A stretch of DNA of 64,000 bases from Eledone cirrhosa. Taxonomy: Eukaryota. Location of the stretch: positions 135,532,001-135,596,000 of the forward strand of contig OZ024744.1 of the NCBI GenBank assembly GCA_964016885.1, given 5' to 3'. Position numbers and translations under genes: made by a program. Of this stretch, positions 23,042-64,000 are shown piece by piece (within the stretch, counting starts at the first letter, position 1; each line of letters opens with the position of its first letter). The notes under the pieces are model-generated. The model was not told where the DNA came from, did no database searches, and worked only from the letters and a program-made list of their open reading frames with translations.

Positions 23042-23068
23042 GCAAATAATAATAAAACATAAACAGAC

Positions 23069-33411: not shown

Positions 33412-33639
33412 ATATAAAGTACTAACAGTGGTACCTGGCGTTGCACGGGATAAGGTATTGTGAAATATATAACTGCCTTAGCTAAGCTTAGTATTGCCAC
33501 AACCACAGCTGGCAAAGAAGTAAGGGTCTGGTGGTACATAAGTAAGCAACACTGTGGCTTAAAACATGAGGAAGAAGTTGTGTGCACTTACCAACTGTTT
33601 GGGGAATGAGTGTGAGATTTGTGTTGAGCAAGAGTGGCA

Positions 33640-34386: not shown

Positions 34387-34444
34387 CTGTCAAATAATAT
34401 CACCATTTTCATTACAAACATGTCATCATCATTGTTTTCTAAAC

Positions 34445-37400
34445 TGACATGGGCTAGACAAGTAATTACAGACTATTGTCCTACATACATGGGTTGGACA
34501 AGTTATTACAGGCTATTGACCTACATACATGGGTTGGACAAGTTATTACAGACTATTGTCCTACCTGGCATGGGTTGGACAATGTATTACAGACTATTGT
34601 CCTACCTGTCATGGGTTGGACAAGTTATTACAGACTATTGTCCTACCTGTCATGGGTTGGACAAGTTATTACAGACTATTGTCCTACCTGTCATGGGTTG
34701 GACAAGTTATTACAAACTATTGTCCTACATACATGGGTTGGACAAGTTATTACAGACTATTGCCCTACCTGTCATGGGTTGGACAAGTTATTACAGACTA
34801 TTGTCCTACCTGTCATGGGTTGGACAAGTTATTACAGACTATTGTCCTACATACATGGGTTGGACAAGTTATTACAGACTATTGCCCTACCTGTCATGGG
34901 TTGGACAAGTTATTACAGACTATTGCCCTACCTGTCATGGGTTGGACAATGTATTACAGACTATTGTCCTACCTGTCATGGGTTGGACAAGTTATTACAG
35001 ACTATTGTCCTACATACATGGGTTGGACAAGTTATTACAGACTATTGTCCTACCTGTCATGGGTTGGACAAGTTATTACAGACTATTGTCCTACATACAT
35101 GGGTTGGACAAGTTATTACAGACTATTGTCCTACCTTTCATGGGTTGGACAAGTTATTACAGACTATTGTCCTACATACATGGGTTGGACAAGTTATTAC
35201 AGACTATTGTCCTAACTGTCATGGGTTGGACAAGTTATTAGAGACTATTGTCCTACCTGGCATGGGTTGGACAAGTTATTACAGACTATTGTCCTACCTG
35301 TCATGGGTTGGACAAGTTATTACAGACTATTGTCCTACATACATGGGTTGGACAAGTTATTACAGACTATTGTCCTACCTGTCATGGGTTGGACAAGTTA
35401 TTACAGACTATTGTCCTACCTGGCATGGGTTGGAGAAGTTATTACAGACTATTGTCCTACATACATGGGTTGGACAAGTTATTACAGACTATTGTCCTAC
35501 CTGTCATGGGTTGGACAAGTTATTACAGACTATTGTCCTACATACATGGGTTGGACAAGTTATTACAGACTATTGTCCTATATACATGGATTGGACAAGT
35601 TATTACAGACTATTGTCCTACCTGTCATGGGTTGGACTAGTTATTACAGACTATTGTCCTATATACATGGGTTGGACAAGTTATTACAGACTATTGTCCT
35701 ACCTGTCATGGGTTGGACAAGTTATTACAGACTATTGTCCTACATACATGGGCTGGACAAGTTATTACAGTCTATTGTCCTATATACATGGGTTGGACAA
35801 GTTATTACAGACTATTGTCCTACCTGGCATGGGTTGGATAAGTTATTACAGACTATTGTCTTACCTGTCATGGGTTGGACAAGCTATTACAGACTATTGT
35901 CCTACCTGTCATGAGTTGGACAAGTTATTACAGACTATTGTCTTACCTGTCATGGGTTGGACAGGTTATTACAGACTATTGTCCTACATACATGGGTTGG
36001 ACAAGTTATTACAGACTATTGTCCTACATACATGGGTTGGACAAGTTATTACAGACTATTGTCCTACCTGTCATGGGTTGGACAAGTTATTACAGACTAT
36101 TGTCCTACATACATGGGTTGGACAAGTTATTACAGACTATTGTCCTACCTGGCATGGGTTGGATAAGTTATTACAGACTATTGTCTTACCTGTCATGGGT
36201 TGGACAAGCTATTACAGACTATTGTCCTACCTGTCATGAGTTGGACAAGTTATTACAGACTATTGTCCTACCTGTCATGGGTTGGACAGGTTATTACAGA
36301 CTATTGTCCTACATACATGGGTTGGACAAGTTATTACAGACTATTGTCCTACATACATGGGTTGGACAAGTTATTACAGACTATTGTCCTACATACATGG
36401 GTTGGACAAGTTAGTACAGACTATTGTCCTACATACATGGGTTGGACAAGTTATTACAGAATATTGTCCTACATACATGGGTTGGACAAGTTATTACAGA
36501 CTATTGTCCTACATACATGGGTTGGACAAGTTATTACAGACTATTGTCCTACCTGTCATGGGTTGGACAAGTTATTACAGACTATTGTCCTACATACATG
36601 GGTTGGACAAGTTATTACAGACTATTGTCCTACCTGGCATGGGTTGGATAAGTTATTACAGACTATTGTCTTACCTGTCATGGGTTGGAGAAGCTATTAC
36701 AGACTATTGTCCTACCTGTCATGAGTTGGACAAGTTATTACAGACTATTGTCCTACCTGTCATGGGTTGGACAGGTTATTACAGACTATTGTCCTACATA
36801 CATGGGTTGGACAAGTTATTACAGACTATTGTCCTACATACATGGGTTGGACAAGTTATTACAGACTATTGTCCTACATACATGGGTTGGACAAGTTATT
36901 ACAGACTTTGTCCTACCTGTCATGGGTTGGACAAATTATTACAGACTTTTATCCTACCTGGCATGGGTTGGACAAGTTATTACAGACTATTGTCCTACCT
37001 GTCATGGGTTGGACAAGTTATTACAGACTATTGTCCTACCTGTCATGGGTTGGACATGTTATTACAGAGTATTGTCCTACCTGTCATGGGTTGGACAAGT
37101 TATTAGAGACTATTGTCCTACATACATGGGTTGGACAAGTTATTACAGACTATTGTCCTACCTGTCATGGGTTGGACAAGTTATTACAGCCTATTGTCCT
37201 ACATACATGGGTTGGACAATTTATTACAGACTATTGTCCTACCTGTCATAGGTAGGACAAGTTATTACACACTATTGTCATACCTGTCATGGATTGGACA
37301 AGTTATTACAGACTATTGTCCTACCTGTCATGGCTTGGACAAGTTATTACAGACTATTGTCCTAAATTCATGGGTTGGACAAGTTATTACAGACTATTGT

Positions 37401-40400
37401 CCTACCTGTCATGAGTTGGACAAGTTATTAGACTATTGTCCTACCTGAATTGGGTTGGACAAGTTATTACAGACTATTGTCCTACATACATGGGTTGGAC
37501 GAGTTATTACAGACTATTGTCCTACCTGTCATGGGTTGGACAAGTTATTACAGAATATCGTCTTACCTGTCATGGGTTGGACAAGTTATTACAGACATTT
37601 GTCCTACATACATGGGTTGGACGAGTTATTACAGACTATTGTCCTACCTGTCATGGGTTGGACAAGTTATTACAGAGTATTGTCTTACCTGTCATGGGTT
37701 GGACAAGTTATTACAGACTATTGTCCTACATACATGGGTTGGATAAGTTATTACAGACTATTGTCCTACCTGTCATGGTTTGGACAAGTTATTACAGACT
37801 ATTGTCCTACCTGTCATGGGTTGGCCAAGTTATTACAGACTATTGTCCTACATACATGGGTTGGACAAGTTATTACAGACTATTGTCCTACCTGTCATTG
37901 GATGGACAAGTTATTACACACTATTGTCGTACATACATGGGTTGGACAAGTTATTACAGACTATTGTCCTACATACATGGGTTGGACAAGTTATTACAGA
38001 CTATTGTCCTACATACATGGGTTGGACAAGTTATTACAGACTATATTGTCCTAGCTGTCATGGGTTGGACAAGTTATTACAGACTATTGTCCTACATACA
38101 TGGGTTGGACAAGTTATTACAGACTATTGTCCTACCTGTCATGGGTTGGACAAGTTATTACAGACTATTGTCCTACATACATGGGTTGGACAAGTTATTA
38201 CAGACTATTGTCCTACCTGTCATGGGTTGGACAAGTTATTACAGACTATTGTCCTGCCTATCATGGGTTGTACAACTTATTACAGACTATTGTCCTACAT
38301 ACATGGGTTGGACAAGTTATTACCGACTATTGTCCTACCTGTCATGGGTTGGACAAGTTATTACAGACTATTGTCCTACATACATGGGTTGGACAAGTTA
38401 TTACACACTATTGTCCTACCTGTCATGGGTTGGGCAAGTTATTACAGACTGTTGTCCTACCTGTCATAGGTTGGACAAGTTATTACAGGCTATTGACCTA
38501 CATACATGGGTTGGACAAATTATTACAGACTATTGTCCTACCTGGCATGGGTTGGACAAGTTATTACAGGCTATTGTCCTACATACATGTGTTGGATAAG
38601 TTATTACAGACTATTGTCCTACATACATGGGTTGGACAAGTTATTACAGACTATTGTCCTACCTGGCATGGGCTGGACAAGGTATTACAGACTATTGTCC
38701 TACCTGTCATTGGTTGGACAAGGTATTACAGACTATTGACCTACCTGTCATGGGTTGGACAAGTTATTACAGACTATTTTCCTACCTGTCATTGGTTGGA
38801 CAAGGTATTACAGACTATTGTCCTACCTGTCATGGGTTGGACAAGTTATTACAGACTATTGTACTACCTGTCATGGGTTGGACATGTTATTACAGGCTAT
38901 TGTCCTACATACATGGGTTGGACAAGTTATTACAGACTATTGTCCTACCTGTCATGGGTTGGACAAGTTATTACACACTATTGTCCTACCTGTCATGGGT
39001 TGGACAAGTTATTACAGACTATTGTCCTACCTGTAATGGGCGAGACAAGTTATTACAGACTATTGTCCTACCTGTCATGGGTTGGACAAGTTATTACAGA
39101 CTATTGTCCTACCTCTCATGGGTTGGACAAGTTATTACAGACTATTGTCCTGCATACATGGGTTGGACAAGTTATTACAGACTATTGTCCTACCTGTCAT
39201 GGGTTGGACAAGTTATTACAGACTATTGTCCTACATGTCATGGGTTGGACAAGTTATTACAGACTATTGTCCTACATACATGGGTTGGACAAGTTATTAC
39301 AGACTATTGTCCTACATACATGGGTTGGACAAGTTATTACAGACTATTGTCCTACTTGTCATGGGTTGGACAAGTTATTACAGACTATTGTCCTACCTGT
39401 CATGGGTTGGACAAGATATTACAGACTATTGTCCTACCTATCATGGGTAGGACAAGTTATTACAGACTATTGTCGTACCTGTCATGGGTTGGACAAGTTA
39501 TTACAGACTATTGTCCTACATACATGGGTTGGACAAGTTATTACATACTATTGTCCTACCTGTCATTGGTTGGACAATGTATTACAGACTATTGTCCTAC
39601 CTGTCATGGGTTGGACAAGTTATTACAGACTATTGTCCTACCTGTCATGGTTTGGACAAGTTATTACAGACTATTGTCCTACATACATGGGTTGGACAAA
39701 TTATTACAGACTATTGTCCTACATACATGGGTTGGACAAGTCATTACAGACTATTGTCCTACCTGTCATTGGTTGGACAAGGTATTACAGACTATTGTCC
39801 TACCTGTCATGGGTTGGACAAGTTATTACAGACTATTGTCCTACATGTCATGGGTTGGACAAGTTATTACAGACTATTGTCCTACATACATGGGTTGGAC
39901 AAGTTATTACAGACTATTGTCCTAGCTGTCATGGGTTGGACAAGTTATTACAGACTATTGTCCTACCTGTTATGGGATGGACAAGTTATTACAGACTATT
40001 GTCCTACCTGTCATCGGTTGGACAAGTTATTACAGACTATTGTCCTACATACATGGGTTGGACAAGTTATTACAGACTATTGTCTTACCTGTCATGGGTT
40101 GGGCAAGTTATTACAGAGTATTGTCCTACATACATGGGTTGGACAAGTTATTACAGACTATTGTCCTACCTGTCATTGGTTGGACAAGGTATTACAGACT
40201 ATTGTCCTACCTGTCATGGGTTGGACAAGTTATTAGAGACTATTTTCCTACCTGTGATTGGTTGGACAAGTTATTACAGACTATTGTCCTACCTGGCATG
40301 GGTTGGACAAGTTATTACAGACTATTGTACTACCTGTCATGGGTTGGACAAGTTATTACAGACTATTGTCCTACCCGTCACGGGCTGGACAAGTTATTAC

Positions 40401-43400
40401 AGACTATTGTCTTACATACATGGGTTGGACAAGTTATTACAGACTATTGTCCTACCTGTCATGGGTTGGACAAGTTATTACACACTATTGTCCTACCTGT
40501 CATGGGTTGGACAAGTTATTACAGACTATTCTCCGACCTGTCATTGGTTGGACAAGGTATTACAGACTATTGTCCTACCTGTCATGGGTTGGACAAGTTA
40601 TTACAGACTATTCTCCGACCTGTCATTGGTTGGAAAGGTATTACAGACTATTGTCCTACCTGTCATGGGTTGGACAAGTTATTACAGACTATTCTCCGAC
40701 CTGTCATTGGTTGGACAAGTTGTTACAGACTATTGTCCTACATGTCATGGGTTGGACAAGTTATTACAGACTATTGTCCTACCTGTCATGGTTTGGACAA
40801 GTTATTACAGACTATTGTCCTACCTGTCATTGGTTGGACAAGGTATTACAGACTATTGTCCTACCTGTCATGGGTTGGACAAGTTATTACAGACTATTCT
40901 CCTACCTGTCATTGGTTGGACAAGGTATTACAGACTATTGTCCTACCTGTCATGGGTTGGACAAGTTATTACAGACTATTGTCCTACATGTCATGGGTTG
41001 GACAAGTTATTACAGACTATTGTCCTACATACATGGGTTGGACAAGTTATTACAGACTATTGTCGTAGCTGTCATGGGTTGGACAAGTTATTACAGACTA
41101 TTGTCCTACCTGTCATGGGATGGACAAGTTATTACAGACTATTGTCCTACCTGTCATCGGTTAGACAAGTTATTACAGACTATTGTCCTACATACATGGG
41201 TTGGACAAGTTATTACAGACTATTGTCCTACCTGTCATGGGTTGGACAAGTTATTACAGACTATTGCCCTACCTGTCATGGGTTGGGCAAGTTATTACAG
41301 AGTATTGTCCTACATACATGGGTTGGATAAGTTATTACAGACTATTGTCCTACCTGTCATTGGTTGGACAAGGTATTACAGACTATTGTCCCACCTGTCA
41401 TGGGTTGGACAAGTTATTAGAGACTATTTTCCTACCTGTCATTGGTTGGACAAGGTATTACAGACTATTGTCCTACCTGTCATAGGTTGGACAAGTTATT
41501 ACAGACTATTGTACTACCTGTCATGGATTGGACAAGTTACTACAGACTATTTTCCTACCTGTCATTGGTTGGACAAGGTATTACAGACTATTGTCCTACC
41601 TGTCATGGGATGGACAAGTTATTACAGACTATTGTCCTACCTGTCATGGGTTGGACAAGTTATTACAGACTATTGTCCTACCTCTCATGGGTTGGACAAG
41701 TTATTACAGACTATTGTCCTGCATACATGGGTTGGACAAGTTATTACAGACTATTGTCCTACCTGTCATGGGTTGGACAACTTATTACAGACTATTGTCC
41801 TACATACATGGGTTGGACAAGTTATTACAGACTATTGCCCTACCTGTCATGGGTTGGACAAGTTATTACAGACTATTGTCCTACATGTCATGGGTTGGAC
41901 AAGTTATTACAGACTATTGTCCTACCTGTCATCGGTTGGACAAGTTATTACAGACTATTGTCCTACATAGATGGGTTGGACAAGTTATTACAGACTATTG
42001 TCTTTCCTGTCATGGGATGGACAAGTTATTACAGACTATTTTCCTACCTGTCATGGGTTGGGCAAGTTATTACAGAGTATTGTCCTACATACATGGGTTG
42101 GACAAGTTATTACAGACTATTGTCCTACCTGTCATGGGTTGGACAAGTTATTACAGAGTATTGTCTTACCTGTCATGGGTTGGACAAGTTATTACAGACT
42201 ATTGTCCTACATACATGGGTTGGACGAGTTATTACAGACTATTGTCCTACCTGTCATGGGTTGGACATGTTATTACAGAATATCGTCTTGCCTGTCATGG
42301 GTTGGACAAGTTATTACAGACATTTGTCCTACATACATGGGTTGGACGAGTTATTACAGACTATTGTCCTACCTGTCATGGGTTGGACAAGTTATTACAG
42401 AGTATTGTCTTACCTGTCATGGGTTGGACAAGTTATTACAGACTATTGTCCTACATACATGGGTTGGACAAGTCATTACAGACTATTGTCCTACCTGTCA
42501 TTGGATGGACAAGTAATTACACACTATTGTCCTACATACATGGGTTGGACAAGTTATTACAGACTATTGTCCTACCTGTCATGGGTTGGATAAGTTATTA
42601 CAGACTATTGTCCTACCTGTCATGGTTTGGACAAGTTATTACAGACTATTGTCCTACCTGTCATGGGTTGGCCAAGTTATTACAGACTATTGTCCTACAT
42701 ACATGGGTTGGACAAGTTATTACAGACTATTGTCCTACCTGTCATTGGATGGACAAGTTATTACACACTATTGTCGTACATACATGGGTTGGACAAGTTA
42801 TTACAGACTATTGTCCTACATACATGGGTTGGACAAGTTATTACAGACTATTGTCCTACATACATGGGTTGGACAAGTTATTACAGACTATATTGTCCTA
42901 GCTGTCATGGGTTGGACAAGTTATTACAGACTATTGTCCTACATACATGGGTTGGACAAGTTATTACAGACTATTGTCCTACCTGTCATGGGTTGGACAA
43001 GTTATTACAGACTATTGTCCTACCTGTCATGGGTTGGACAAGTTATTACAGACTATTGTCCTACCTATCATGGGTTGTACAAGTTATTACAGACTATTGT
43101 CCTACATACATGGGTTGGACAAGTTATTACCGACTATTGTCCTACCTGTCATGGGTTGAACAAGTTATTACACACTATTGTCCTACCTGTCATGGGTTGG
43201 GCAAGTTATTACAGACTATTGTCCTACCTGTCATAGGTTGGACAAGTTATTACAGGCTATTGACCTACATACATTGGTTGGACAAATTATTACAGACTAT
43301 TGTACTACCTGTCATGGGTTGGACAAGTTATTACAGGCTATTGTCCTACCTGAATTGGGTTGTACAAGTTATTACAGACTATTGTCCTACATACATGGGT

Positions 43401-46400
43401 TGGACGAGTTATTACAGACTATTGTCCTACCTGTCATGGGTTGGACATGTTATTACAGAATATCGTCTTGCCTGTCATGGGTTGGACAAGTTATTACAGA
43501 CATTTGTCCTACATACATGGGTTGGACGAGTTATTACAGACTATTGTCCTACCTGTCATGGGTTGGACAAGTTATTACAGAGTATTGTCTTACCTGTCAT
43601 GGGTTGGACAAGTTATTACAGACTATTGTCCTACATACATGGGTTGGACAAGTCATTACAGACTATTGTCCTACCTGTCATTGGACGGACAAGTAATTAC
43701 ACACTATTGTCCTACATACATGGGTTGGACAAGTTATTACAGACTATTGTCCTACCTGTCATGGGTTGGATAAGTTATTACAGACTATTGTCCTACCTGT
43801 CATGGTTTGGACAAGTTATTACAGACTATTGTCCTACCTGTCATGGGTTGGCCAAGTTATTACAGACTATTGTCCTACATACATGGGTTGGACAAGTTAT
43901 TACAGACTATTGTCCTACCTGTCATTGGATGGACAAGTTATTACACACTATTGTCGTACATACATGGGTTGGACAAGTTATTACAGACTATTGTCCTACA
44001 TACATGGGTTGGACAAGTTATTACAGACTATTGTCCTACATACATGGGTTGGACAAGTTATTACAGACTATATTGTCCTAGCTGTCATGGGTTGGACAAG
44101 TTATTACAGACTATTGTCCTACATACATGGGTTGGACAAGTTATTACAGACTATTGTCCTACCTGTCATGGGTTGGACAAGTTATTACAGACTATTGTCC
44201 TACCTGTCATGGGTTGGACAAGTTATTACAGACTATTGTCCTACCTATCATGGGTTGTACAAGTTATAACAGACTATTGTCCTACATACATGGGTTGGAC
44301 AAGTTATTACCGACTATTGTCCTACCTGTCATGGGTTGAACAAGTTATTACACACTATTGTCCTACCTGTCATGGGTTGGGCAAGTTATTACAGACTATT
44401 GTCCTACCTGTCATAGGTTGGACAAGTTATTACAGGCTATTGACCTACATACATGGGTTGGACAAATTATTACAGACTATTGTACTACCTGTCATGGGTT
44501 GGACAAGTTATTACAGGCTATTGTCCTACATACATGTGTTGGATAAGTTATTACAGACTATTGTCCTACCTGTCATTGGTTGGACAAGGTATTACAGACT
44601 ATTGTCCTACCTGTCATGGGTTGGACAAGTTATTACAGACTATTTTCCTACCTGTCATTGGTTGGACAAGGTATTACAGACTATTGTCCTACCTGTCATG
44701 GGTTGGACAAGTTATTACAGACTATTGTACTACCTGTCATGGGTTGGACAAGTTATTACAGGCTATTGTCCTACATACATGGGTTGGACAAGTTATTACA
44801 GACTATTGTCCTACCTGTCATGGGTTGGACAAGTTATTACACACTATTGTCCTACCTGTCATGGGTTGGACAAGTTATTACAGACTATTGTCCTACCTGT
44901 AATGGGCGAGACAAGTTATTACAGACTATTGTCCTACCCGTCACGGGCTGGACAAGTTATTACAGACTATTGTCTTACATACATGGGTTGGACAAGTTAT
45001 TACAGACTATTGTCTTACATACATGGGTTGGACAAGTTATTACAGACTATTGTCCTACCTGTCATGGGTTGGACAAGTTATTACACACTATTGTCCTACC
45101 TGTCATGGGTTGGACAAGTTATTACAGACTATTCTCCGACCTGTCATTGGTTGGACAAGGTATTACAGACTATTGTCCTACCTGTCATGGGTTGGACAAG
45201 TTATTACAGACTATTCTCCGACCTGTCATTGGTTGGAAAGGTATTACAGACTATTGTCCTACCTGTCATGGGTTGGACAAGTTATTACAGACTATTCTCC
45301 GACCTGTCATTGGTTGGACAAGTTATTACAGACTATTGTCCTACATGTCATGGGTTGGACAAGTTATTACAGACTATTGTCCTACCTGTCATGGTTTGGA
45401 CAAGTTATTACAGACTATTGTCCTACATATATGGGTTGGACAAGTTATTACAGACTATTGTCCTACATACATGGGTTGGACAAGTTATTACAGACTATTG
45501 TCCTACCTGTCATTGGTTGGACAAGGTATTACAGACTATTGTCCTACCTGTCATGGGTTGGACAAGTTATTACAGACTATTCTCCTACCTGTCATTGGTT
45601 GGACAAGGTATTACAGACTATTGTCCTACCTGTCATGGGTTGGACAAGTTATTACAGACTATTGTCCTACATGTCATGGGTTGGACAAGTTATTACAGAC
45701 TATTGTCCTACATACATGGGTTGGACAAGTTATTACAGACTATTGTCGTAGCTGTCATGGGTTGGACAAGTTATTACAGACTATTGTCCTACCTGTCATG
45801 GGATGGACAAGTTATTACATACTATTGTCCTACCTGTCATCGGTTGGACAAGTTATTACAGACTATTGTCCTACATACATGGGTTGGACAAGTTATTACA
45901 GACTATTGTCCTACCTGTCATGGGTTGGACAAGTTATTACAGACTATTGCCCTACCTGTCATGGGTTGGGCAAGTTATTACAGAGTATTGTCCTACATAC
46001 ATGGGTTGGATAAGTTATTACAGACTATTGTCCTACCTGTGATTGGTTGGACAAGGTATTACAGACTATTGTCCCACCTGTCATGGGTTGGACAAGTTAT
46101 TAGAGACTATTTTCCTACCTGTCATTGGTTGGACAAGGTATTACAGACTATTGTCCTACCTGTCATAGGTTGGACAAGTTATTACAGACTATTGTACTAC
46201 CTGTCATGGATTGGACAAGTTATTACAGACTATTTTCCTACCTGTCATTGGTTGGACAAGGTATTACAGACTATTGTCCTACCTGTCATGGGTTGGACAA
46301 GTTATTACAGACTATTTTCCTACCTGTCATTGGTTGGACAAGGTATTACAGACTATTGTCCTACCTGTCATGGGTTGGACAAGTTATTACTGACTATTGT

Positions 46401-49400
46401 ACTACCTGTCATGGGTTGGACATGTTATTACAGGCTATTGTCCTACATACATGGGTTGGACAAGTTATTACAGACTATTGTCCTACCTGTCATGGGTTGG
46501 ACAAGTTATTACACACTATTGTCCTACCTGTCATGGGTTGGACAAGTTATTACAGACTATTGTCCTACCTGTAATGGGCGAGACAAGTTATTACAGACTA
46601 TTGTCCTACCTGTCATGGGTTGGACAAGTTATTACAGACTATTGTCCTACCTCTCATGGGTTGGACAAGTTATTACAGACTATTGTCCTGCATACATGGG
46701 TTGGACAAGTTATTACAGACTATTGTCCTACCTGTCATGGGTTGGACAAGTTATTACAGACTATTGTCCTACCTGTCATGGGTTGGACAAGTTATTACAC
46801 ACTATTGTCCTACCTGTCATGGGTTGGACAAGTTATTACAGACAATCGTCCTACCTGTCATGGGTTGGACAAGTTATTACAGACTATTGTCCTACCTGTC
46901 ATGGGTTGGACAAGTTATTACACACTATTGTCCTACCTGTCATGGCTTGGACAAGTTATTACAGACAATCGTCCTACCTGTCATGGGTTGGACAAGTTAT
47001 TACAGACTATTGTCCTACATACATGGGTTGGAGAAGTTATTACAGACTATTGTCCTACCTGTCATGGGTTGGACAAGTTATTACAGACTATTGTCCTACC
47101 TGTCATGGTTTGGACAAGTTATTACAGACTATTGTCCTACATACATGGGTTGGACAAGTTATTACAGACTATTGTCCTACATACATGGGTTGGACAAGTT
47201 ATTACAGACTATTGTCCTACCTGTCATTGGTTGGACAAGGTATTACAGACTATTGTCCTACCTGTCATGGGTTGGACAAGTTATTACAGACTATTGTCCT
47301 ACATGTCATGGGTTGGACAAGTTATTACAGACTATTGTCCTACATACATGGGTTGGACAAGTTATTACAGACTATTGTCCTACCTGTCATGGGTTGGACA
47401 AGTTATTACAGACTATTGTCCTAGCTGTCATGGGTTGGACAAGTTATTACAGACTATTGTCCTACCTGTTATGGGATGGACAAGTTATTACAGACTATTT
47501 GCCTACCTGTCATCGGTTGGACAAGTTATTACAGACTATTGTCCTACATATATGGGTTGGACAAGTTATTACAGACTATTGTCCTACCTGTCATGGGATG
47601 GACAAGTTATTACAGACTATTGTCCTACCTGTCATGGGTTGGGCAAGTTATTACAGAGTATTGTCCTACATACATGGGTTGGACAAGTTATTACAGACTA
47701 TTGTCCTACCTGTCATTGGTTGGACAAGGTATTACAGACTATTGTCCTACCTGTCATGGGTTGGACAAGTTATTACAGACTATTGTACTACCTGTCATGG
47801 ATTGGACAAGTTATTACAGACTATTTTCCTACCTGTCATTGGTTGGACAAGGTATTACAGACTATTGTCCTACCTGTCATGGGTTGGACAAGTTATTACA
47901 GACTATTTTCCTACCTGTCATTGGTTGGACAAGGTATTACAGACTATTGTCCTACCTGTCATGGGTTGGACAAGTTATTACAGACTATTGTACTACCTGT
48001 CATGGGTTGGACAAGTTATTACAGGCTATTGTCCTACATACATGGGTTGGACAAGTTATTACAGACTATTGTCCTACCTGTCATAGGTAGGACAAGTTAT
48101 TACACACTATTGTCCTACCTGTCATGGATTGGACAAGTTATTACAGACTATTGTCCTACCTGTCATGGCTTGGACAAGTTATTACAGACTATTGTCCTAA
48201 ATACATGGGTTGGACAAGTTATTACAGACTATTGTCCTACCTGTCATGAGTTGGACAAGTTATTAGACTATTGTCCTACCTGAATTGGGTTGGACAAGTT
48301 ATTACAGACTATTGTCCTACATACATGGGTTGGACGAGTTATTACAGACTATTGTCCTACCTGTCATGGGTTGGACAAGTTATTACAGAATATCGTCTTA
48401 CCTGTCATGGGTTGGACAAGTTATTACAGACATTTGTCCTACATACATGGGTTGGACGAGTTATTACAGACTATTGTCCTACCTGTCATGGGTTGGACAA
48501 GTTATTACAGAGTATTGTCTTACCTGTCATGGGTTGGACAAGTTATTACAGACTATTGTCCTACCTGTCATGGGTTGGCCAAGTTATTACAGACTATTGT
48601 CCTACATACATAGGTTGGACAAGTTATTACAGACTATTGTCCTACCTGTCATTGGATGGACAAGTTATTACACACTATTGTCCTACATACATGGGTTGGA
48701 CAAGTTATTACAGACTATTGTCCTACCTGTCATGGGTTGGATAAGTTATTACAGACTATTGTCCTACCTGTCATGGTTTGGACAAGTTATTACAGACTAT
48801 TGTCCTACCTGTCATGGGTTGGCCAAGTTATTACAGACTATTGTCCTACCTGTCATTGGATGGACAAGTTATTACACACTATTGTCGTACATACATGGGT
48901 TGGACAAGTTATTACAGACTATTGTCCTACATACATGGGTTGGACAAGTTATTACAGACTATTGTCCTACATACATGGGTTGGACAAGTTATTACAGACT
49001 ATTGTCCTACATACATGGGTTGGACGAGTTATTACAGACTATTGTCCTACATACATGGGTTGGACAAGTTATTACAGACTATTGTCCTACATACATGGGT
49101 TGGACAAGTTATTACAGACTATTGTCCTACATACATGGATTGGACAAGTTATTACAGACTATATTGTCCTAGCTCTCATGGGTTGGACAAGTTATTACAG
49201 ACTATTGTCCTACATACATGGGTTGGACAAGTTATTACAGACTATTCTCCGACCTGTCATTGGTTGGACAAGGTATTACAGACTATTGTCCTACCTGTCA
49301 TGGGTTGGACAAGTTATTACAGACTATTCTCCGACCTGTCATTGGTTGGACAAGGTATTACAGACTATTGTCCTACCTGTCATGGGTTGGACAAGTTATT

Positions 49401-52400
49401 ACAGACTATTCTCCGACCTGTCATTGGTTGGACAAGTTATTACAGACTATTGTCCTACATGTCATGGGTTGGACAAGTTATTACAGACTATTGTCCTACC
49501 TGTCATGGATTGGACAAGTTATTACAGACTATTGTCCTACATATATGGGTTGGACAAGTTATTACAGACTATTGTCCTACATACATGGGTTGGACAAGTT
49601 ATTACAGACTATTGTCCTACCTGTCATTGGTTGGACAAGGTATTACAGACTATTGTCCTACCTGTCATGGGTTGGACAAGTTATTACAGACTATTCTCCT
49701 ACCTGTCATTGGTTGGACAAGGTATTACAGACTATTGTCCTACCTGTCATGGGTTGGACAAGTTATTACAGACTATTGTCCTACCTATCATGGGTTGTAC
49801 AAGTTATTACAGACTATTGTCCTACATACATGGGTTGGACAAGTTATTACCGACTATTGTCCTACCTGTCATGGGTTGAACAAGTTATTACACACTATTG
49901 TCCTACCTGGCATGGGTTGGGCAAGTTATTACAGACTATTGTCCTACCTGTCATAGGTTGGACAAGTTATTACAGGCTATTGACCTACATACATGGGTTG
50001 GACAAATTATTACAGACTATTGTACTACCTGTCATGGGTTGGACAAGTTATTACAGGCTATTGTCCTACATACATGTGTTGGATAAGTTATTACAGACTA
50101 TTGTCCTACCTGTCATTGGTTGGACAAGGTATTACAGACTATTGTCCTACCTGTCATGGGTTGGACAAGTTATTACAGACTATTTTCCTACCTGTCATGG
50201 GTTGGACAAGTTATTACAGACTATTTTCCTACCTGTCATTGGTTGGACAAGGTATTACAGACTATTGACCTACCTGTCATGGGTTGGACAAGTTATTACA
50301 GGCTATTGTCCTACATACATGGGTTGGACAAGTTATTACAGACTATTGTCCTACCTGTCATGGGTTGGACAAGTTATTACACACTATTGTCCTACCTGTC
50401 ATGGGTTGGACAAGTTATTACAGACTATTGTCCTACCTGTAATGGGCGAGACAAGTTATTACAGACTATTGTCCTACCCGTCACGGGCTGGACAAGTTAT
50501 TACAGACTATTGTCTTACATACATGGGTTGGACAAGTTATTACAGACTATTGTCCTACCTGTCATGGGTTGGACAAGTTATTACACACTATTGTCCTACC
50601 TGTCATGGGTTGGACAAGTTATTACAGACTATTCTCCGACCTGTCATTGGTTGGACAAGGTATTACAGACTATTGTCCTACCTGTCATGGGTTGGACAAG
50701 TTATTACAGACTATTCTCCGACCTGTCATTGGTTGGAAAGGTATTACAGACTATTGTCCTACCTGTCATGGGTTGGACAAGTTATTACAGACTATTCTCC
50801 GACCTGTCATTGGTTGGACAAGTTATTACAGACTATTGTCCTACATGTCATGGGTTGGACAAGTTATTACAGACTATTGTCCTACCTGTCATGGTTTGGA
50901 CAAGTTATTACAGACTATTGTCCTACATATATGGGTTGGACAAGTTATTACAGACTATTGTCCTACCTGTCATTGGTTGGACAAGGTATTACAGACTATT
51001 GTCCTACCTGTCATGGGTTGGACAAGTTATTACAGACTATTCCCCTACCTGTCATTGGTTGGACAAGGTATTACAGACTATTGTCCTACCTGTCATGGGT
51101 TGGACAAGTTATTACAGACTATTGTCCTACATGTCATGGGTTGGACAAGTTATTACAGACTATTGTCCTACATACATGGGTTGGACAAGTTATTACAGAC
51201 TATTGTCGTAGCTGTCATGGGTTGGACAAGTTATTACAGACTATTGTCCTACCTGTCATGGGATGGACAAGTTATTACAGACTATTGTCCTACCTGTCAT
51301 CGGTTGGACAAGTTATTACAGACTATTGTCCTACATACATGGGTTGGACAAGTTATTACAGACTATTGTCCTACCTGTCATGGGATGGACAAGTTATTAC
51401 AGACTATTGTCCTACCTGTCATTGGTTGGACAAGGTATTACAGACTATTGTCCTACCTGTCATGGGTTGGACAAGTTATTACAGACTATTTTCCTACCTG
51501 TCATTGGTTGGACAAGGTATTACAGACTATTGTCCTACCTGTCATGGGTTGGACAAGTTATTACAGACTATTGTACTACCTGTCATGGGTTGGACAAGTT
51601 ATTACAGGCTATTGTCCTACATACATGGGTTGGACAAGTTATTACAGACTATTGTCCTACCTGTCATGGGTTGGACAAGTTATTACACACTATTGTCCTA
51701 CCTGTCATGGGTTGGACACGTTATTACAGACTATTGTCCTACCTGTAATTGGCGAGACAAGTTATTACAGACTATTGTCCTACCCGTCACGGGCTGGACA
51801 AGTTATTACAGACTATTGTCTTACATACATGGGTTGGACAAGTTATTACAGACTATTGTCCTACCTGTCATGGGTTGGACAAGTTATTACACACTATTGT
51901 CCTACCTGTCATGGGTTGGACAAGTTATTACAGACTATTCTCCGACCTGTCATTGGTTGGACAAGGTATTACAGACTATTGTCCTACCTGTCATGGGTTG
52001 GACAAGTTATTACAGACTATTGTCCTACCTGTCATGGTTTGGACAAGTTATTACAGACTATTGTCCTACATATATGGGTTGGACAAGTTATTACAGACTA
52101 TTGTCCTACATACATGGGTTGGACAAGTTATTACAGACTATTGTCCTACCTGTCATTGGTTGGACAAGGTATTACAGACTATTGTCCTACCTGTCATGGG
52201 TTGGACAAGTTATTACAGACTATTCTCCTACCTGTCATTGGTTGGACAAGGTATTACAGACTATTGTCCTACCTGTCATGGGTTGGACAAGTTATTACAG
52301 ACTATTGTCCTACATGTCATGGGTTGGACAAGTTATTACAGACTATTGTCCTACATACATGGGTTGGACAAGTTATTACAGACTATTGTCGTAGCTGTCA

Positions 52401-55400
52401 TGGGTTGGACAAGTTATTACAGACTATTGTCCTACCTGTCATGGGATGGACAAGTTATTACAGACTATTGTCCTACCTGTCATGGGTTGGACAAGTTATT
52501 ACAGACTATTGTCCTACCTCTCATCGGTTGGACAAGTTATTACAGACTATTGTCCTACATACATGGGTTGGACAAGTTATTACAGACTATTGTCCTACCT
52601 GTCATGGGATGGACAAGTTATTACAGACTATTGCCCTACCTGTCATGGGTTGGGCAAGTTATTACAGAGTATTGTCCTACATACATGGGTTGGATAAGTT
52701 ATTACAGACTATTGTCCTACCTGTCATTGGTTGGACAAGGTATTACAGACTATTGTCCTACCTGTCATGGGTTGGACAAATTATTAGAGACTATTTTCCT
52801 ACCTGTCATTGGTTGGACAAGGTATTACAGACTATTGTCTTACCTGTCATGGGTTGGACAAGTTATTACAGACTATTGTCCTACCTGTCATGGGTTGGAC
52901 AAGTTATTACACACTATTGTCCTACCTGTCATGGCTTGGACAAGTTATTACAGACAATCGTCCTACCTGTCATGGGTTGGACAAGTTATTACAGACTATT
53001 GTCCTACCTGTCATGGGTTGGACAAGTTATTACAGACTATTGTCCTACATACATGGGTTGGAGAAGTTATTACAGACTATTGTCCTACCTGTCATTGGTT
53101 GGACAAGGTATTACAGACTATTGTCCTACCTGTCATGGGTTGGACAAATTATTAGAGACTATTTTCCTACCTGTCATTGGTTGGACAAGGTATTACAGAC
53201 TATTGTCCTACCTGTCATGGGTTGGACAAGTTATTACAGACTATTGTCCTACCTGTCATGGGTTGGACAAGTTATTACACACTATTGTCCTACCTGTCAT
53301 GGCTTGGACAAGTTATTACAGACAATCGTCCTACCTGTCATGGGTTGGACAAGTTATTACAGACTATTCTCCGACCTGTCATTGGTTGGACAAGGTATTA
53401 CAGACTATTGTCCTACCTGTCATGGGTTGGACAAGTTATTACAGACTATTGTCCTACCTGTCATGGTTTGGACAAGTTATTACAGACTATTGTCCTACAT
53501 ATATGGGTTGGACAAGTTATTACAGACTATTGTCCTACATACATGGGTTGGACAAGTTATTACAGACTATTGTCCTACCTGTCATTGGTTGGACAAGGTA
53601 TTACAGACTATTGTCCTACCTGTCATGGGTTGGACAAGTTATTACAGACTATTCTCCTACCTGTCATTGGTTGGACAAGGTATTACAGACTATTGTCCTA
53701 CCTGTCATGGGTTGGACAAGTTATTACAGACTATTGTCCTACATGTCATGGGTTGGACAAGTTATTACAGACTATTGTCCTACATACATGGGTTGGACAA
53801 GTTATTACAGACTATTGTCGTAGCTGTCATGGGTTGGACAAGTTATTACAGACTATTGTCCTACCTGTCATGGGATGGACAAGTTATTACAGACTATTGT
53901 CCTACCTGTCATGGGTTGGACAAGTTATTACAGACTATTGTCCTACCTGTCATCGGTTGGACAAGTTATTACAGACTATTGTCCTACATACATGGGTTGG
54001 ACAAGTTATTACAGACTATTGTCCTACCTGTCATGGGATGGACAAGTTATTACAGACTATTGCCCTACCTGTCATGGGTTGGGCAAGTTATTACAGAGTA
54101 TTGTCCTACATACATGGGTTGGATAAGTTATTACAGACTATTGTCCTACCTGTCATTGGTTGGACAAGGTATTACAGACTATTGTCCTACCTGTCATGGG
54201 TTGGACAAATTATTAGAGACTATTTTCCTACCTGTCATTGGTTGGACAAGGTATTACAGACTATTGTCCTACCTGTCATGGGTTGGACAAGTTATTACAG
54301 ACTATTGTCCTACCTGTCATGGGTTGGACAAGTTATTACACACTATTGTCCTACCTGTCATGGCTTGGACAAGTTATTACAGACAATCGTCCTACCTGTC
54401 ATGGGTTGGACAAGTTATTACAGACTATTGTCCTACCTGTCATGGGTTGGACAAGTTATTACAGACTATTGTCCTACATACATGGGTTGGAGAAGTTATT
54501 ACAGACTATTGTCCTACCTGTCATGGGATGGACAAGTTATTACAGACTATTGTCCTACCTGTCATTGGTTGGACAAGTTATTACAGACTATTGTCCTACC
54601 TGTCATGGGTTGGACAAGTTATTACAGACTATTGTCCTACCTGTCATGGTTTGGACAAGTTATTACAGACTATTGTCCTACATACATGGGTTGGAGAAGT
54701 TATTACAGACTATTGTCCTACATACATCGGTTGGACAAGTTATTACAGACTATTGTCCTACCTGTCATTGGTTGGACAAGGTATTACAGACTATTGTCCT
54801 ACCTGTCATGGGTTGGACAAGTTATTACAGACTATTGTCCTACATGTCATGGGTTGGACAAGTTATTACAGACTATTGTCCTACATACATGGGTTGGACA
54901 AGTTATTACAGACTATTGTCCTAGCTGTCATGGGTTGGACAAGTTATTACAGACTATTGTCCTACCTGTTATGGGATGGACAAGTTATTACAGACTATTT
55001 GCCTACCTGTTATCGGTTGGACAAGTTATTACAGACTATTGTCCTACATACATGGGTTGGACAAGTTATTACAGACTATTGTCCTACCTGTCATGGGTTG
55101 GCCAAGTTATTACAGACTATTGTCCTACATACATAGGTTGGACAAGTTATTACAGACTATTGTCCTACCTGTCATGGTTTGGACAAGTTATTACAGACTA
55201 TTGTCCTACCTGTCATGGGTTGGCCAAGTTATTACAGACTATTGTCCTACCTGTCATTGGATGGACAAGTTATTACACACTATTGTCGTACATACATGGG
55301 TTGGACAAGTTATTACAGACTATTGTCCTACATACATGGGTTGGACAAGTTATTACAGACTATTGTCCTACATACATGGGTTGGACAAGTTATTACAGAC

Positions 55401-58400
55401 TATTGTCCTAGCTGTCATGGGTTGGACAAGTTATTACAGACTATTGTCCTACCTGTTATGGGTTGGACAAGTTATTACAGACTATTGTCCTACATACATG
55501 GGTTGGACGAGTTATTACAGACTATTGTCCTACATACATGGGTTGGACAAGTTATTACAGACTATTGTCCTACATACATGGGTTGGACAAGTTATTACAG
55601 ACTATTGTCCTACCTGTCATTGGTTGGACAAGGTATTACAGACTATTGTCCTACCTGTCATGGGTTGGACAAGTTATTACAGACTATTGTCCTACATGTC
55701 ATGGGTTGGACAAGTTATTACAGACTATTGTCCTACATACATGGGTTGGACAAGTTATTACAGACTATTGTCCTAGCTGTCATGGGTTGGACAAGTTATT
55801 ACAGACTATTGTCCTACCTGTTATGGGATGGACAAGTTATTACAGACTATTTGCCTACCTGTCATCGGTTGGACAAGTTATTACAGACTATTGTCCTACA
55901 TACATGGGTTGGACAAGTTATTACAGACTATTGTCCTACCTGTCATGGGTTGGCCAAGTTATTACAGACTATTGTCCTACATACATAGGTTGGACAAGTT
56001 ATTACAGACTATTGTCCTACCTGTCATGGTTTGGACAAGTTATTACAGACTATTGTCCTACCTGTCATGGGTTGGCCAAGTTATTACAGACTATTGTCCT
56101 ACCTGTCATTGGTTGGACAAGTTATTACAGACTATTGTCCTACATACATGGGTTGGACAAGTTATTACAGACTATTGTCCTACATACATGGGTTGGACAA
56201 GTTATTACAGACTATTGTCCTAGCTGTCATGGGTTGGACAAGTTATTACAGACTATTGTCCTACCTGTTATGGGTTGGACAAGTTATTACAGACTATTGT
56301 CCTACATACATGGGTTGGACGAGTTATTACAGACTATTGTCCTACATACATGGGTTGGACAAGTTATTACAGACTATTGTCCTACATACATGGGTTGGAC
56401 AAGTTATTACAGACTATTGTCCTACATACATGGATTGGACAAGTTATTACAGACTATATTGTCCTAGCTCTCATGGGTTGGACAAGTTATTACAGACTAT
56501 TGTCCTACATACATGGGTTGGACAAGTTATTACCGACTATTGTCCTACCTGTCATGGGTTGGACAAGTTATTACACATTATTGTCCTACCTGTCATGGGT
56601 TGGGCAAGTTATTACAGACTATTGTCCTACCTGTCATAGGTTGGACAAGTTATTACAGGCTATTGACCTACATACATGGGTTGGACAAATTATTACAGAC
56701 TATTGTACTACCTGTCATGGGTTGGACAAGTTATTACAGGCTATTGTCCTACATACATGTGTTGGATAAGTTATTACAGACTATTGTCCTACCTGTCATA
56801 GGTTGGACAAGGTATTACAGACTATTGTCCTACCTGTCATGGGTTGGACAAGTTATTACAGACTATTTTCCTACCTGTCATTGGTTGGACAAGGTATTAC
56901 AAACTATTGTCCTACCTGTCATGGGTTGGACAAGTTATTACAGACTATTGTACTACCTGTCATGGGTTGGACAAGTTATTACAGGCTATTGTCCTACATA
57001 CATGGGTTGGACAAGTTATTACAGACTATTGTCCTACCTGTCATGGGTTGGACAAGTTATTACACACTATTGTCCTACCTGTCATGGGTTGGACAAGTTA
57101 TTACAGACTATTGTCCTACCTGTCATGGGTTGGACAAGTTATTACAGACTATTGCCCTACCTGGCATGGGCTGGACAAGTTATTACAGACTATTGTCTTA
57201 CATACATGGGTTGGACAACTTATTACAGACTATTGTCCTACCTGTCATGGGTTGGACAAATTATTACACACTATTGTCCTACCTGTCATGGGTTGGACAA
57301 GTTATTACAGACTATTCTCCGACCTGTCATTGGTTGGACAAGGTATTACAGACTATTGTCCTACCTGTCATGGGTTGGACAAGTTATTACAGACTATTCT
57401 CCGACCTGTCATTGGTTGGACAAGGTATTACAGACTATTGTCCTACCTGTCATGGGTTGGACAAGTTATTACAGACTATTCTCCGACCTGTCATTGGTTG
57501 GACAAGTTATTACAGACTATTGTCCTACATGTCATGGGTTGGACAAGTTATTACAGACTATTGTCCTACCTGTCATGGTTTGGACAAGTTATTACAGACT
57601 ATTGTCCTACATATATGGGTTGGACAAGTTATTACAGACTATTGTCCTACATACATGGGTTGGACAAGTTATTACAGACTATTGCCCTACCTGTCATTGG
57701 TTGGACAAGGTATTACAGACTATTGTCCTACCTGTCATGGGTTGGACAAGTTATTACAGACTATTCTCCTACCTGTCATTGGTTGGACAAGGTATTACAG
57801 ACTATTGTCCTACCTGTCATGGGTTGGACAAGTTATTACAGACTATTGTCCTACATGTCATGGGTTGGACAAGTTAATACAGACTATTGTCCTACATACA
57901 TGGGTTGGACAAGTTATTACAGACTATTGTCGTAGCTGTCATGTGTTGGACAAGTTATTACAGACTATTGTCCTACCTGTCATGGGATGGACAAGTTATT
58001 ACAGACTATTGTCCTACCTGTCATCGGTTGGACAAGTTATTACAGACTATTGTCCTACATACATGGGTTGGACAAGTTATTACAGACTATTGTCCTACCT
58101 GTCATGGGATGGACAAGTTATTACAGACTATTGTCCTACCTGTCATGGATTGGGCAAGTTATTACAGAGTATTGTCCTACATACATGGGTTGGACAAGTT
58201 ATTACAGACTATTGTCCTACCTGTCATTGGTTGGACAAGGTATTACAGACTATTGTCCTACCTGTCATGGGTTGGACAAGTTATTAGAGACTATTTTCCT
58301 ACCTGTCATTGGTTGGACAAGGTATTACAGACTATTGTCCTACCTGTCATGGGTTGGGCAAGTTATTACAGAGTATTGTCCTACATACATGGGTTGGACA

Positions 58401-61400
58401 AGGTATTACAGACTATTGTCCTACCTGTCATGGATTGGACAAGTTATTACAGACTATTGTCCTACCTGTCATGGCTTGGACAAGTTATTACAGACTATTG
58501 TCCTAAATACATGGGTTGGACAAGTTATTACAGACTATTGTCCTACCTGTCATGAGTTGGACAAGTTATTAGACTATTGTCCTACCTGAATTGGGTTGGA
58601 AAAGTTATTACAGACTATTGTCCTACCTGTCATGCGTTGGACAAGTTATTACAGAATATCGTCTTACCTGTCATGGGTTGGACAAGTTATTACAGACATT
58701 TGTCCTACATACATGGGTTGGACGAGTTATTACAGACTATTGTCCTACCTGTCATGGGTTGGACAAGTTATTACAGACTATTGTCCTACCTGTCATGGGT
58801 TGGACAAGTTATTACAGATTATTCTCCTACATATATGGGTTGGACAAGTTATTACAGACTATTGTCCTACATACATGGGTTGGACAAGTTATTACAGACT
58901 ATTGCCCTACCTGTCATTGGTTGGACAAGGTATTACAGACTATTGTCCTACCTGTCATGGGTTGGACAAGTTATTACAGACTATTCTCCTACCTGTCATT
59001 GGTTGGACAAGGTATTACAGACTATTGTCCTACCTGTCATGGGTTGGACAAGTTATTACAGACTATTGTCCTACATGTCATGGGTTGGACAAGTTAATAC
59101 AGACTATTGTCCTACATACATGGGTTGGACAAGTTATTACAGACTATTGTCGTAGCTGTCATGTGTTGGACAAGTTATTACAGACTATTGTCCTACCTGT
59201 CATGGGATGGACAAGTTATTACAGACTATTGTCCTACCTGTCATCGGTTGGACAAGTTATTACAGACTATTGTCCTACATACATGGGTTGGACAAGTTAT
59301 TACAGACTATTGTCCTACCTGTCATGGGATGGACAAGTTATTACAGACTATTGTCCTACCTGTCATGGATTGGGCAAGTTATTACAGAGTATTGTCCTAC
59401 ATACATGGGTTGGACAAGTTATTACAGACTATTGTCCTACCTGTCATTGGTTGGACAAGGTATTACAGACTATTGTCCTACCTGTCATGGGTTGGACAAG
59501 TTATTAGAGACTATTTTCCTACCTGTCATTGGTTGGACAAGGTATTACAGACTATTGTCCTACCTGTCATGGGTTGGGCAAGTTATTACAGAGTATTGTC
59601 CTACATACATGGGTTGGACAAGGTATTACAGACTATTGTCCTACCTGTCATGGATTGGACAAGTTATTACAGACTATTGTCCTACCTGTCATGGCTTGGA
59701 CAAGTTATTACAGACTATTGTCCTAAATACATGGGTTGGACAAGTTATTACAGACTATTGTCCTACCTGTCATGGGTTGGACAAGTTATTACACACTATT
59801 GTCCTACCTGTCATGGGTTGGACAAGTTATTACAGACTATTCTCCGACCTGTCATTGGTTGGACAAGGTATTACAGACTATTGTCCTACCTGTCATGGGT
59901 TGGACAAGTTATTACAGACTATTGTCCTACCTGTCATGGTTTGGACAAGTTATTACAGACTATTGTCCTACATATATGGGTTGGACAAGTTATTACAGAC
60001 TATTGTCCTACATACATGGGTTGGACAAGTTATTACAGACTATTGTCCTACCTGTCATTGGTTGGACAAGGTATTACAGACTATTGTCCTACCTGTCATG
60101 GGTTGGACAAGTTATTACAGACTATTCTCCTACCTGTCATTGGTTGGACAAGGTATTACAGACTATTGTCCTACCTGTCATGGGTTGGACAAGTTATTAC
60201 AGACTATTGTCCTACATGTCATGGGTAGGACAAGTTATTACAGACTATTGTCCTACATACATGGGTTGGACAAGTTATTACAGACTATTGTCGTAGCTGT
60301 CATGGGTTGGACAAGTTATTACAGACTATTGTCCTACCTGTCATGGGATGGACAAGTTATTACAGACTATTGTCCTACCTGTCATGGGTTGGACAAGTTA
60401 TTACAGACTATTGTCCTACCTGTCATCGGTTGGACAAGTTATTACAGACTATTGTCCTACATACATGGGTTGGACAAGTTATTACAGACTATTGTCCTAC
60501 CTGTCATGGGATGGACAATTATTACAGACTATTGCCCTACCTGTCATGGGTTGGGCAAGTTATTACAGAGTATTGTCCTACATACATGGGTTGGATAAGT
60601 TATTACAGACTATTGTCCTACCTGTCATTGGTTGGACAAGGTATTACAGACTATTGTCCTACCTGTCATGGGTTGGACAAATTATTAGAGACTATTTTCC
60701 TACCTGTCATTGGTTGGACAAGGTATTACAGACTATTGTCCTACCTGTCATGGGTTGGACAAGTTATTACAGACTATTGTCCTACCTGTCATGGGTTGGA
60801 CAAGTTATTACACACTATTGTCCTACCTGTCATGGCTTGGACAAGTTATTACAGACAATCGTCCTACCTGTCATGGGTTGGACAAGTTATTACAGACTAT
60901 TGTCCTACCTGTCATGGGTTGGACAAGTTATTACAGACTATTGTCCTACATACATGGGTTGGAGAAGTTATTACAGACTATTGTCCTACCTGTCATGGGA
61001 TGGACAAGTTATTACAGACTATTGTCCTACCTGTCATTGGTTGGACAAGTTATTACAGACTATTGTCCTACCTGTCATGGGTTGGACAAGTTATTACAGA
61101 CTATTGTCCTACCTGTCATGGTTTGGACAAGTTATTACAGACTATTGTCCTACATACATGGGTTGGAGAAGTTATTACAGACTATTGTCCTACATACATG
61201 GGTTGGACAAGTTATTACAGACTATTGTCCTACCTGTCATTGGTTGGACAAGGTATTACAGACTATTGTCCTACCTGTCATGGGTTGGACAAGTTATTAC
61301 AGACTATTGTCCTACATGTCATGGGTTGGACAAGTTATTACAGACTATTGTCCTACATACATGGGTTGGACAAGTTATTACAGACTATTGTCCTAGCTGT

Positions 61401-64000
61401 CATGGGTTGGACAAGTTATTACAGACTATTGTCCTACCTGTTATGGGATGGACAAGTTATTACAGACTATTTGCCTACCTGTCATCGGTTGGACAAGTTA
61501 TTACAGACTATTGTCCTACATACATGGGTTGGACAAGTTATTACAGACTATTGTCCTACCTGTCATGGGTTGGCCAAGTTATTACAGACTATTGTCCTAC
61601 ATACATAGGTTGGACAAGTTATTACAGACTATTGTCCTACCTGTCATGGTTTGGACAAGTTATTACAGACTATTGTCCTACCTGTCATGGGTTGGCCAAG
61701 TTATTACAGACTATTGTCCTACCTGTCATTGGATGGACAAGTTATTACACACTATTGTCGTACATACATGGGTTGGACAAGTTATTACAGACTATTGTCC
61801 TACATACATGGGTTGGACAAGTTATTACAGACTATTGTCCTACATACATGGGTTGGACAAGTTATTACAGACTATTGTCCTAGCTGTCATGGGTTGGACA
61901 AGTTATTACAGACTATTGTCCTACCTGTTATGGGTTGGACAAGTTATTACAGACTATTGTCCTACATACATGGGTTGGACGAGTTATTACAGACTATTGT
62001 CCTACATACATGGGTTGGACAAGTTATTACAGACTATTGTCCTACATACATGGGTTGGACAAGTTATTACAGACTATTGTCCTACATACATGGATTGGAC
62101 AAGTTATTACAGACTATATTGTCCTAGCTCTCATGGGTTGGACAAGTTATTACAGACTATTGTCCTACATACATGGGTTGGACAAGTTATTACAGACTAT
62201 TGTCCTACCTGTCATTGGTTGGACAAGGTATTACAGACTATTGTCCTACCTGTCATGGGTTGGACAAGTTATTACAGACTATTGTCCTACATGTCATGGG
62301 TTGGACAAGTTATTACAGACTATTGTCCTACATACATGGGTTGGACAAGTTATTACAGACTATTTCCTAGCTGTCATGGGTTGGACAAGTTATTACAGAC
62401 TATTGTCCTACCTGTTATGGGATGGACAAGTTATTACAGACTATTTGCCTACCTGTCATCGGTTGGACAAGTTATTACAGACTATTGTCCTACATACATG
62501 GGTTGGACAAGTTATTACAGACTATTGTCCTACCTGTCATGGGTTGGCCAAGTTATTACAGACTATTGTCCTACATACATAGGTTGGACAAGTTATTACA
62601 GACTATTGTCCTACCTGTCATGGTTTGGACAAGTTATTACAGACTATTGTCCTACCTGTCATGGGTTGGCCAAGTTATTACAGACTATTGTCCTACCTGT
62701 CATTGGTTGGACAAGTTATTACAGACTATTGTCCTACATACATGGGTTGGACAAGTTATTACAGACTATTGTCCTACATACATGGGTTGGACAAGTTATT
62801 ACAGACTATTGTCCTAGCTGTCATGGGTTGGACAAGTTATTACAGACTATTGTCCTACCTGTTATGGGTTGGACAAGTTATTACAGACTATTGTCCTACA
62901 TACATGGGTTGGACGAGTTATTACAGACTATTGTCCTACATACATGGGTTGGACAAGTTATTACAGACTATTGTCCTACATACATGGGTTGGACAAGTTA
63001 TTACAGACTATTGTCCTACATACATGGATTGGACAAGTTATTACAGACTATATTGTCCTAGCTCTCATGGGTTGGACAAGTTATTACAGACTATTGTCCT
63101 ACATACATGGGTTGGACAAGTTATTACCGACTATTGTCCTACCTGTCATGGGTTGGACAAGTTATTACACATTATTGTCCTACCTGTCATGGGTTGGGCA
63201 AGTTATTACAGACTATTGTCCTACCTGTCATAGGTTGGACAAGTTATTACAGGCTATTGACCTACATACATGGGTTGGACAAATTATTACAGACTATTGT
63301 ACTACCTGTCATGGGTTGGACAAGTTATTACAGGCTATTGTCCTACATACATGTGTTGGATAAGTTATTACAGACTATTGTCCTACCTGTCATAGGTTGG
63401 ACAAGGTATTACAGACTATTGTCCTACCTGTCATGGGTTGGACAAGTTATTACAGACTATTTTCCTACCTGTCATTGGTTGGACAAGGTATTACAGACTA
63501 TTGTCCTACCTGTCATGGGTTGGACAAGTTATTACAGACTATTGTACTACCTGTCATGGGTTGGACAAGTTATTACAGGCTATTGTCCTACATACATGGG
63601 TTGGACAAGTTATTACAGACTATTGTCCTACCTGTCATGCGTTGGACAAGTTATTACAGAATATCGTCTTACCTGTCATGGGTTGGACAAGTTATTACAG
63701 ACATTTGTCCTACATACATGGGTTGGACGAGTTATTACAGACTATTGTCCTACCTGTCATGGGTTGGACAAGTTATTACAGACTATTGTCCTACCTGTCA
63801 TGGGTTGGACAAGTTATTACAGATTATTCTCCTACATATATGGGTTGGACAAGTTATTACAGACTATTGTCCTACATACATGGGTTGGACAAGTTATTAC
63901 AGACTATTGCCCTACCTGTCATTGGTTGGACAAGGTATTACAGACTATTGTCCTACCTGTCATGGGTTGGACAAGTTATTACAGACTATTCTCCTACCTG
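34445..64000. repeat. 41/40-bp tandem satellite (GGGTTGGACAAGTTATTACAGACTATTGTCCTAC + CTGTCAT or ATACAT), ~725 copies; runs off the right edge
   Basis: Monomer read directly from the sequence; two interspersed length classes. Block duplications at offsets 325, 485, 852, 1180, 1220, 1429, 4847, 6472, 6594 and 10835 bp are seen in matching ORF-track pairs. Confidence 0.99.

Follow-up and report, generated by a model that had tools for sequence, protein, structure and literature searches.

Satellite arrays and retroposon copies in the window

The stretch of DNA analysed here (the window, 64,000 nucleotides) consists of two giant tandem arrays, with periods of 48 bp (2-13349) and 41 bp (34444-64000), placed around 21 kb of transposon debris. 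Within these 21 kb, HMM searches identified eight copies of one retroposon tail. The short strings from which a first-pass annotation had linked this tail to the second array were found at 34423, 17692 and 17723 and, as reverse complement, at 13441. The features are as follows.

2-13349, plus: satellite array with a 48-bp unit, which comes from a more upstream part of this tail
13344-13497, plus: tail copy T1, closest to the 41/40-bp monomer (28/40 at 13447-13486), continuing the 48-bp array
14536-14616, plus: tail copy T2, truncated, T1 subfamily
17690-17850, minus: tail copy T3
17981-19878, minus: broken LINE with reverse transcriptase (RT; Pfam RVT_1, E 2.9e-21), PHD finger, C-terminal piece, 3' UTR and tail T4 (17981-18140)
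26810-26888, minus: tail copy T5
27813-27905, plus: tail copy T6, with a 10-nt deletion
28057-28241: 2.4 inverted 48-bp units (28057-28171) joined directly to tail T7 (28172-28241, plus; 26/40 to the monomer)
31601-32751, plus: second LINE copy, 5'-truncated, with PHD finger, C-terminus, 3' UTR and tail T8; 87-96% identity to the first copy
34423-34464, minus: terminal unit, a LINE 3' end lacking ~11 nt between two A-runs, followed by (GAT)3
34448-64000, minus (element sense): satellite array of 41/40-bp units in two interleaved variants, numbering at least 724 and running past the window end

Tails T4 and T8 are continuous with the RT and PHD frames of the broken gene over 1.1 kb at 87-96% identity, and the tail is therefore the 3' UTR of a LINE, an RT-encoding element with a simple-repeat end. 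Presumably this LINE belongs to the RTE type, as judged from its motifs and the microsatellite end; the names of its homologues give no clade. The named homologues of the protein, three Octopus sequences among 81 matches, come from Octopus vulgaris and O. bimaculoides and show 53-71% identity, which makes an octopod the likely host. RVT_1 and PHD occur together in many homologues. The PHD finger lies directly after the RT domain in both copies (18591-19100, minus; 31717-32172, plus). In the literature searched, the papers on PHD concern ORF1, and none by title deals with a PHD finger after the RT.

A homologous end lies 355-467 nt past the protein match in 13 of 79 distant loci from metagenome contigs, the 79 including any contigs that end before this point. 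The homology of distant ends was found by a motif search that gave 27 matches, 13 of them used in a profile and 18 in an alignment, with the other 9 left out; the HMM of the window's tails found no matches to the terminal segment in the 79 loci at E <0.1. A dispersed SINE-like repeat in some of the distant hosts (L021, L035, L036, L043, L065, L067 and L074; e.g. L036:2150-2400) has the terminal hairpin and a 12-nt internal motif in common with the tail in the window, and the RT-PHD LINEs of those hosts have shorter 3' UTRs. The tail motifs gave no matches in viral contigs or in prokaryote genome contigs, and Rfam gave two matches on 13000-35000, each under the gathering score. No occurrence of the motifs was found in the literature text searched or in supplements 1-4 of PMC9115989.

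Several further elements were observed between the arrays. Three tandem copies (~190-200 bp) of a SINE-like repeat at 22480-23046 represent another retroposon in early tandem amplification; we take them to resemble an octopus SINE. At 15235-16151 lies a Tc1/mariner-like element that has lost internal sequence and carries an HTH fragment and terminal inverted repeats of 112 nt. Another LINE family is represented by two fragments at 28916-30642, which include inverted and directly duplicated pieces of 93-95% identity. From its end motifs we assume that 33420-34003, 420 nt from the junction with the 41/40-bp array, is a non-autonomous Helitron-type element. The sequence after the very end of T1 presumably contains a LINE endonuclease fragment, to judge from a motif.

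The 41/40-bp monomer and the LINE 3' end

In the whole window, TRF reported the period-41 array with 726 copies. Splitting gave 724 complete units (493 of 41 bp, 220 of 40 bp, seven of 43 bp, three of 39 bp and one unsplit unit of 82 bp), the 41- and 40-bp units being mixed along the array without a fixed period. It is long, homogeneous and head to tail, with a mean divergence of units from the array consensus of 3.3% and a mean pairwise identity of 94% among its 41-mers. In run X1, a public run of the same organism, monomer words reach ~3800 times the flank depth, a rough figure that carries no locus information and is a rough sign of thousands of copies. Consensus-like monomers (34448-34527) also occur in contigs of three other organisms (runs X5, X6 and X7) at low depth (21, 14 and 6); they stem either from a small array common to these organisms or from traces of contamination and were excluded from the support. 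The exact monomer motif gave no matches in metagenome contigs.

Read on the minus strand, the monomer matches the final 40 nt of the tail before the microsatellite over its full length in a gap-free alignment. This collinearity is observed directly. Ungapped identity is 28/40 to T1, 26/40 to T7 and T4, 25/40 to T8 and 23/40 to T3 and T5, as against 18 and 17 for the truncated T2 and the deleted T6. The value for T1 is the same as that between tail subfamilies (T1 and T3, 28/40). The first-pass annotation had matched a monomer core to the terminal segment of the tail and had called the case weak on account of a short match; the match is real, although it involves the entire monomer rather than the core alone, and with the full 40 nt aligned the observation is stronger than had been claimed. 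With the register fixed by the first half, the second half of the monomer alone gives 50 of 92 matches (P 0.002, or 0.01 with shifts), and the summed alignment score of the monomer to the eight tails exceeded that of all 400 shuffles. An unbiased 17-mer scan across the intervening 21 kb gave tail copies as all four of its best loci; shuffled monomers gave a mean of 1.7 loci at ≥14/17, and 17 of 150 reached ≥15/17.

For a profile search, which the annotation had proposed for the junction and the monomer, an HMM of 159 model positions was built from the eight tail copies outside the arrays. It aligned the junction (34423-34463, minus) to model positions 106-157 with 8.3 bits (E 0.058 window-wide) and scored monomers at up to 9.6 bits, scores of 8-10 bits corresponding to window-wide E values of 0.02-0.06. 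As a blind search of the window, these scores are marginal and not significant; at the place specified beforehand, however, the junction score was reached by none of 3000 dinucleotide shuffles. In the same kind of test the 41-mer score was reached by 0 and the 40-mer score by 2 of 3000 shuffles, and when only the 33-nt flank was shuffled the junction score was reached 5 times in 3000. A profile made from the 13 distant LINE ends alone placed the monomer on the predicted strand and in the predicted register, one of 82 placements, with a score that was not significant (reached by 180 of 2000 shuffles) and from a profile that misplaced three of four true tails.

At its edge the array finishes in a single unit (34423-34464) that extends to the terminus of the element, where (GAT)3 is directly seen, despite the 11-nt deletion. 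This edge unit is 22/30 identical to the monomer and likewise 22/30 to T1, and in ten diagnostic columns it has the tail state in three, the monomer state in five and another state in two; from these letters it appears to be an intermediate between tail and monomer. A 595-nt contig of run X1 covers flank and junction with three substitutions and one gap, and the junction is thus not an assembly artefact. Two other organisms have 31/36 and 34/38 as their best matches to the junction, both within unrelated flanks. The chance of such matches at this place is 9e-4 and 4e-6, respectively, while 0.42 matches of the 31/36 kind are expected somewhere along the query; one of the two continues tail-like, with 9 of 13 letters as in T4 (by eye).

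The segment of the tail that matches the monomer contains a conserved 3'-terminal stem-loop. Across 24 LINE ends, 91.7% of the 120 cells of a 5-bp hairpin are paired, compared with 10-60% in slid controls. Two of the five pairs show compensatory changes on both sides among these 24 ends, distant LINEs included, which are related sequences, so that shuffles overstate the significance. The hairpin is followed by a conserved purine-rich stretch and then by the microsatellite; stem-loops of this kind are described for stringent-type LINE ends (PMC3747384). In the monomer and in the edge unit the LINE hairpin is not formed and a different one forms instead. Selection for retrotransposition has therefore apparently been lost, and the array is probably no longer a substrate of the RT. 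Folding z-scores for the hairpin in single tails and monomers were modest (-2.3 to +0.6).

Origin and growth of the arrays

Because the monomer matches the last ~40 nt of the tail and the array closes with a decayed version of the same end, the array likely arose from the terminal piece of the LINE, and we regard it as very probably tail-derived. As the first-pass annotation had proposed, the two satellites come from different pieces of the same tail in opposite orientation: on T1 the source pieces do not overlap, the 41-bp piece, which is the last ~40 nt, lying 97 nt beyond the point where the 48-bp segment stops. Each array either adjoins or most resembles the T1/T2/T7 subfamily. Comparison of the 48-mer with T3 needs a gap (~38 of 49 columns by eye), and ungapped comparisons understate that match. 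The arrangement of each array with a 3' end facing the middle was also borne out (13497, plus; 34423, minus); the convergent orientation is treated as coincidence, a single case with even odds. With two arrays in one window, the tail may be a recurrent generator of satellites. An exact duplication of 2900 nt at an offset of 3150 lies inside the 48-bp array (6337-12386), and is either very recent or an assembly artefact.

The longest exact internal repeat of the 41/40-bp array is 1131 nt, compared with 165-192 nt in ten shuffles of unit order. Such exact repeats, which are seen directly, sit at offsets of 1-14 kb, and 57% of the array lies within exact blocks of ≥300 nt. Exact duplications of kilobase blocks point to growth of the bulk of the array at the DNA level and not by reverse transcription, and the reiterative reverse transcription suggested by the annotation is not supported for that bulk. 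With good confidence, we propose that the array likely began when the terminal ~40 nt of one inserted LINE tail formed a head-to-tail duplication, and that duplication of blocks at the DNA level likely enlarged it. We infer that a tail of the T1/T7 subfamily would have inserted, and that its last 39-41 nt would have been duplicated once. Slippage during replication and a template jump of the RT both fit this first duplication, which a 3-nt AAC repeat at both unit ends may have aided. Unequal exchange would then have made the array longer and more uniform and fixed changes that disrupt the LINE hairpin, while the edge unit may have escaped full homogenisation and retained the microsatellite.

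A tentative alternative, which we consider rather unlikely, shares this origin but has the LINE RT both seed and spread the array: repeated re-priming on the terminal hairpin would write several tandem copies upon insertion, array-plus-tail RNAs would retrotranspose, and only late growth would be at the DNA level. The unit is indeed the conserved terminal hairpin segment adjoining the microsatellite, T1 ends in an exact 21-bp tandem duplication of its own (13482-13523), and inverted 48-bp units abut the 3' end of a tail at 28057-28241. The latter locus looks as if an RNA carrying the array had been retrotransposed with its 5' part inverted, and its arrangement is what twin priming would leave. 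Template slippage on LINE 3' repeats has also been described for UnaL2 (PMC3747384). However, the hairpin is broken in the monomer and terminal unit, no target-site duplication (TSD) of ≥6 nt was found in the tested 56-57 nt flanks around 28057-28393, and the TRF listing gave a tandem repeat of the last 40 nt in none of the 13 distant LINE ends. The block structure requires DNA-level steps regardless, and exact blocks of 1131 nt together with the lack of an intact recognition hairpin are not what an RT-written array would show. A bolder version, in which the RT re-primes on the 3' hairpin like telomerase, lays down arrays of many 40-nt copies as it inserts and moves RNAs of array plus tail to other sites, so that one tail parents several large satellite families across octopods, is in our view doubtful.

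It is quite improbable that only a 17-nt core is tail-derived in register and that the remainder of the monomer represents the sequence upstream of the hairpin with a 10-nt internal duplication. T3 does align 11/13 to the other half of the monomer and slightly prefers the upstream register (14 against 13 of 24), T7 being neutral (11 against 11), but this register needs a gap and free shift, totals 63 against 73 of 144 for the downstream register over six tails, and is not the one chosen by the distant-LINE profile. That the satellite had another origin, its likeness to the tail being accidental or due to a small insertion of the tail at the edge, would agree with the low bit scores and with a density of tail copies (8 in 21 kb) at which one at the array edge is not improbable, yet this reading is very improbable and largely refuted by interior monomers that match the tail by themselves (0/3000 and 0/400 shuffles) and share orientation and register with the intermediate edge unit.

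Comparison with known satellites

The formation of a satellite from a retrotransposon by ordinary DNA duplication, the origin favoured here, is a known route to satellite DNA. In cephalopods satellite DNA has been little described; the literature searched, with most subscription journals outside its scope, contained no report of a LINE-tail satellite for this group, and the parts covered of two papers on octopus repeats (PMC13282606 and PMC9115989) hold no such satellite. Two large arrays from separate pieces of one 3' UTR, with the parent junctions attached and 21 kb apart, represent a clean case for the birth of a satellite. Published cases of satellites from transposable elements leave the maker of the first repeat to inference; if short terminal duplications with TSDs prove to be common, the present case would test RT against DNA slippage for that repeat.

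LINE-derived satellites include the chicken HinfI and Cen repeats from CR1 and PROsat from LINE-1, in addition to TE-derived minisatellites (PMC6947457), and these satellites come from other LINE clades than the parent here. In the RTE-generated microsatellite families of Lepidoptera, RTE 3' ends, often 3' fragments, finish in simple repeats that are explained by slippage in the course of retrotransposition (PMC2887409); their units are of a few bases, in contrast to the 40-nt units in a 30-kb array found here. A molluscan satellite with a retroposon-derived monomer is PcH-sat of the limpet Patella caerulea, which differs in its 179-bp unit containing 118 bp of the Nin-SINE body, and whose description in the abstract includes no terminal junction (PMC11121367). 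The sSat1-3 satellites of squamates (snakes and lizards) are SINE-derived and have in common with the present array a tandem unit corresponding to part of a dispersed retroposon, an extended last unit that runs to the terminus of the element, alternating sub-variants, up to ~1200 units per locus and several independent satellites per parent family (PMC10702118). They differ in that the present array has as its parent a LINE 3' UTR, or a SINE with this 3' UTR in common, the unit is 40-41 nt compared with their 67-290 nt (PMC10702118) and consists of the terminal hairpin segment itself, and the host is probably a cephalopod.
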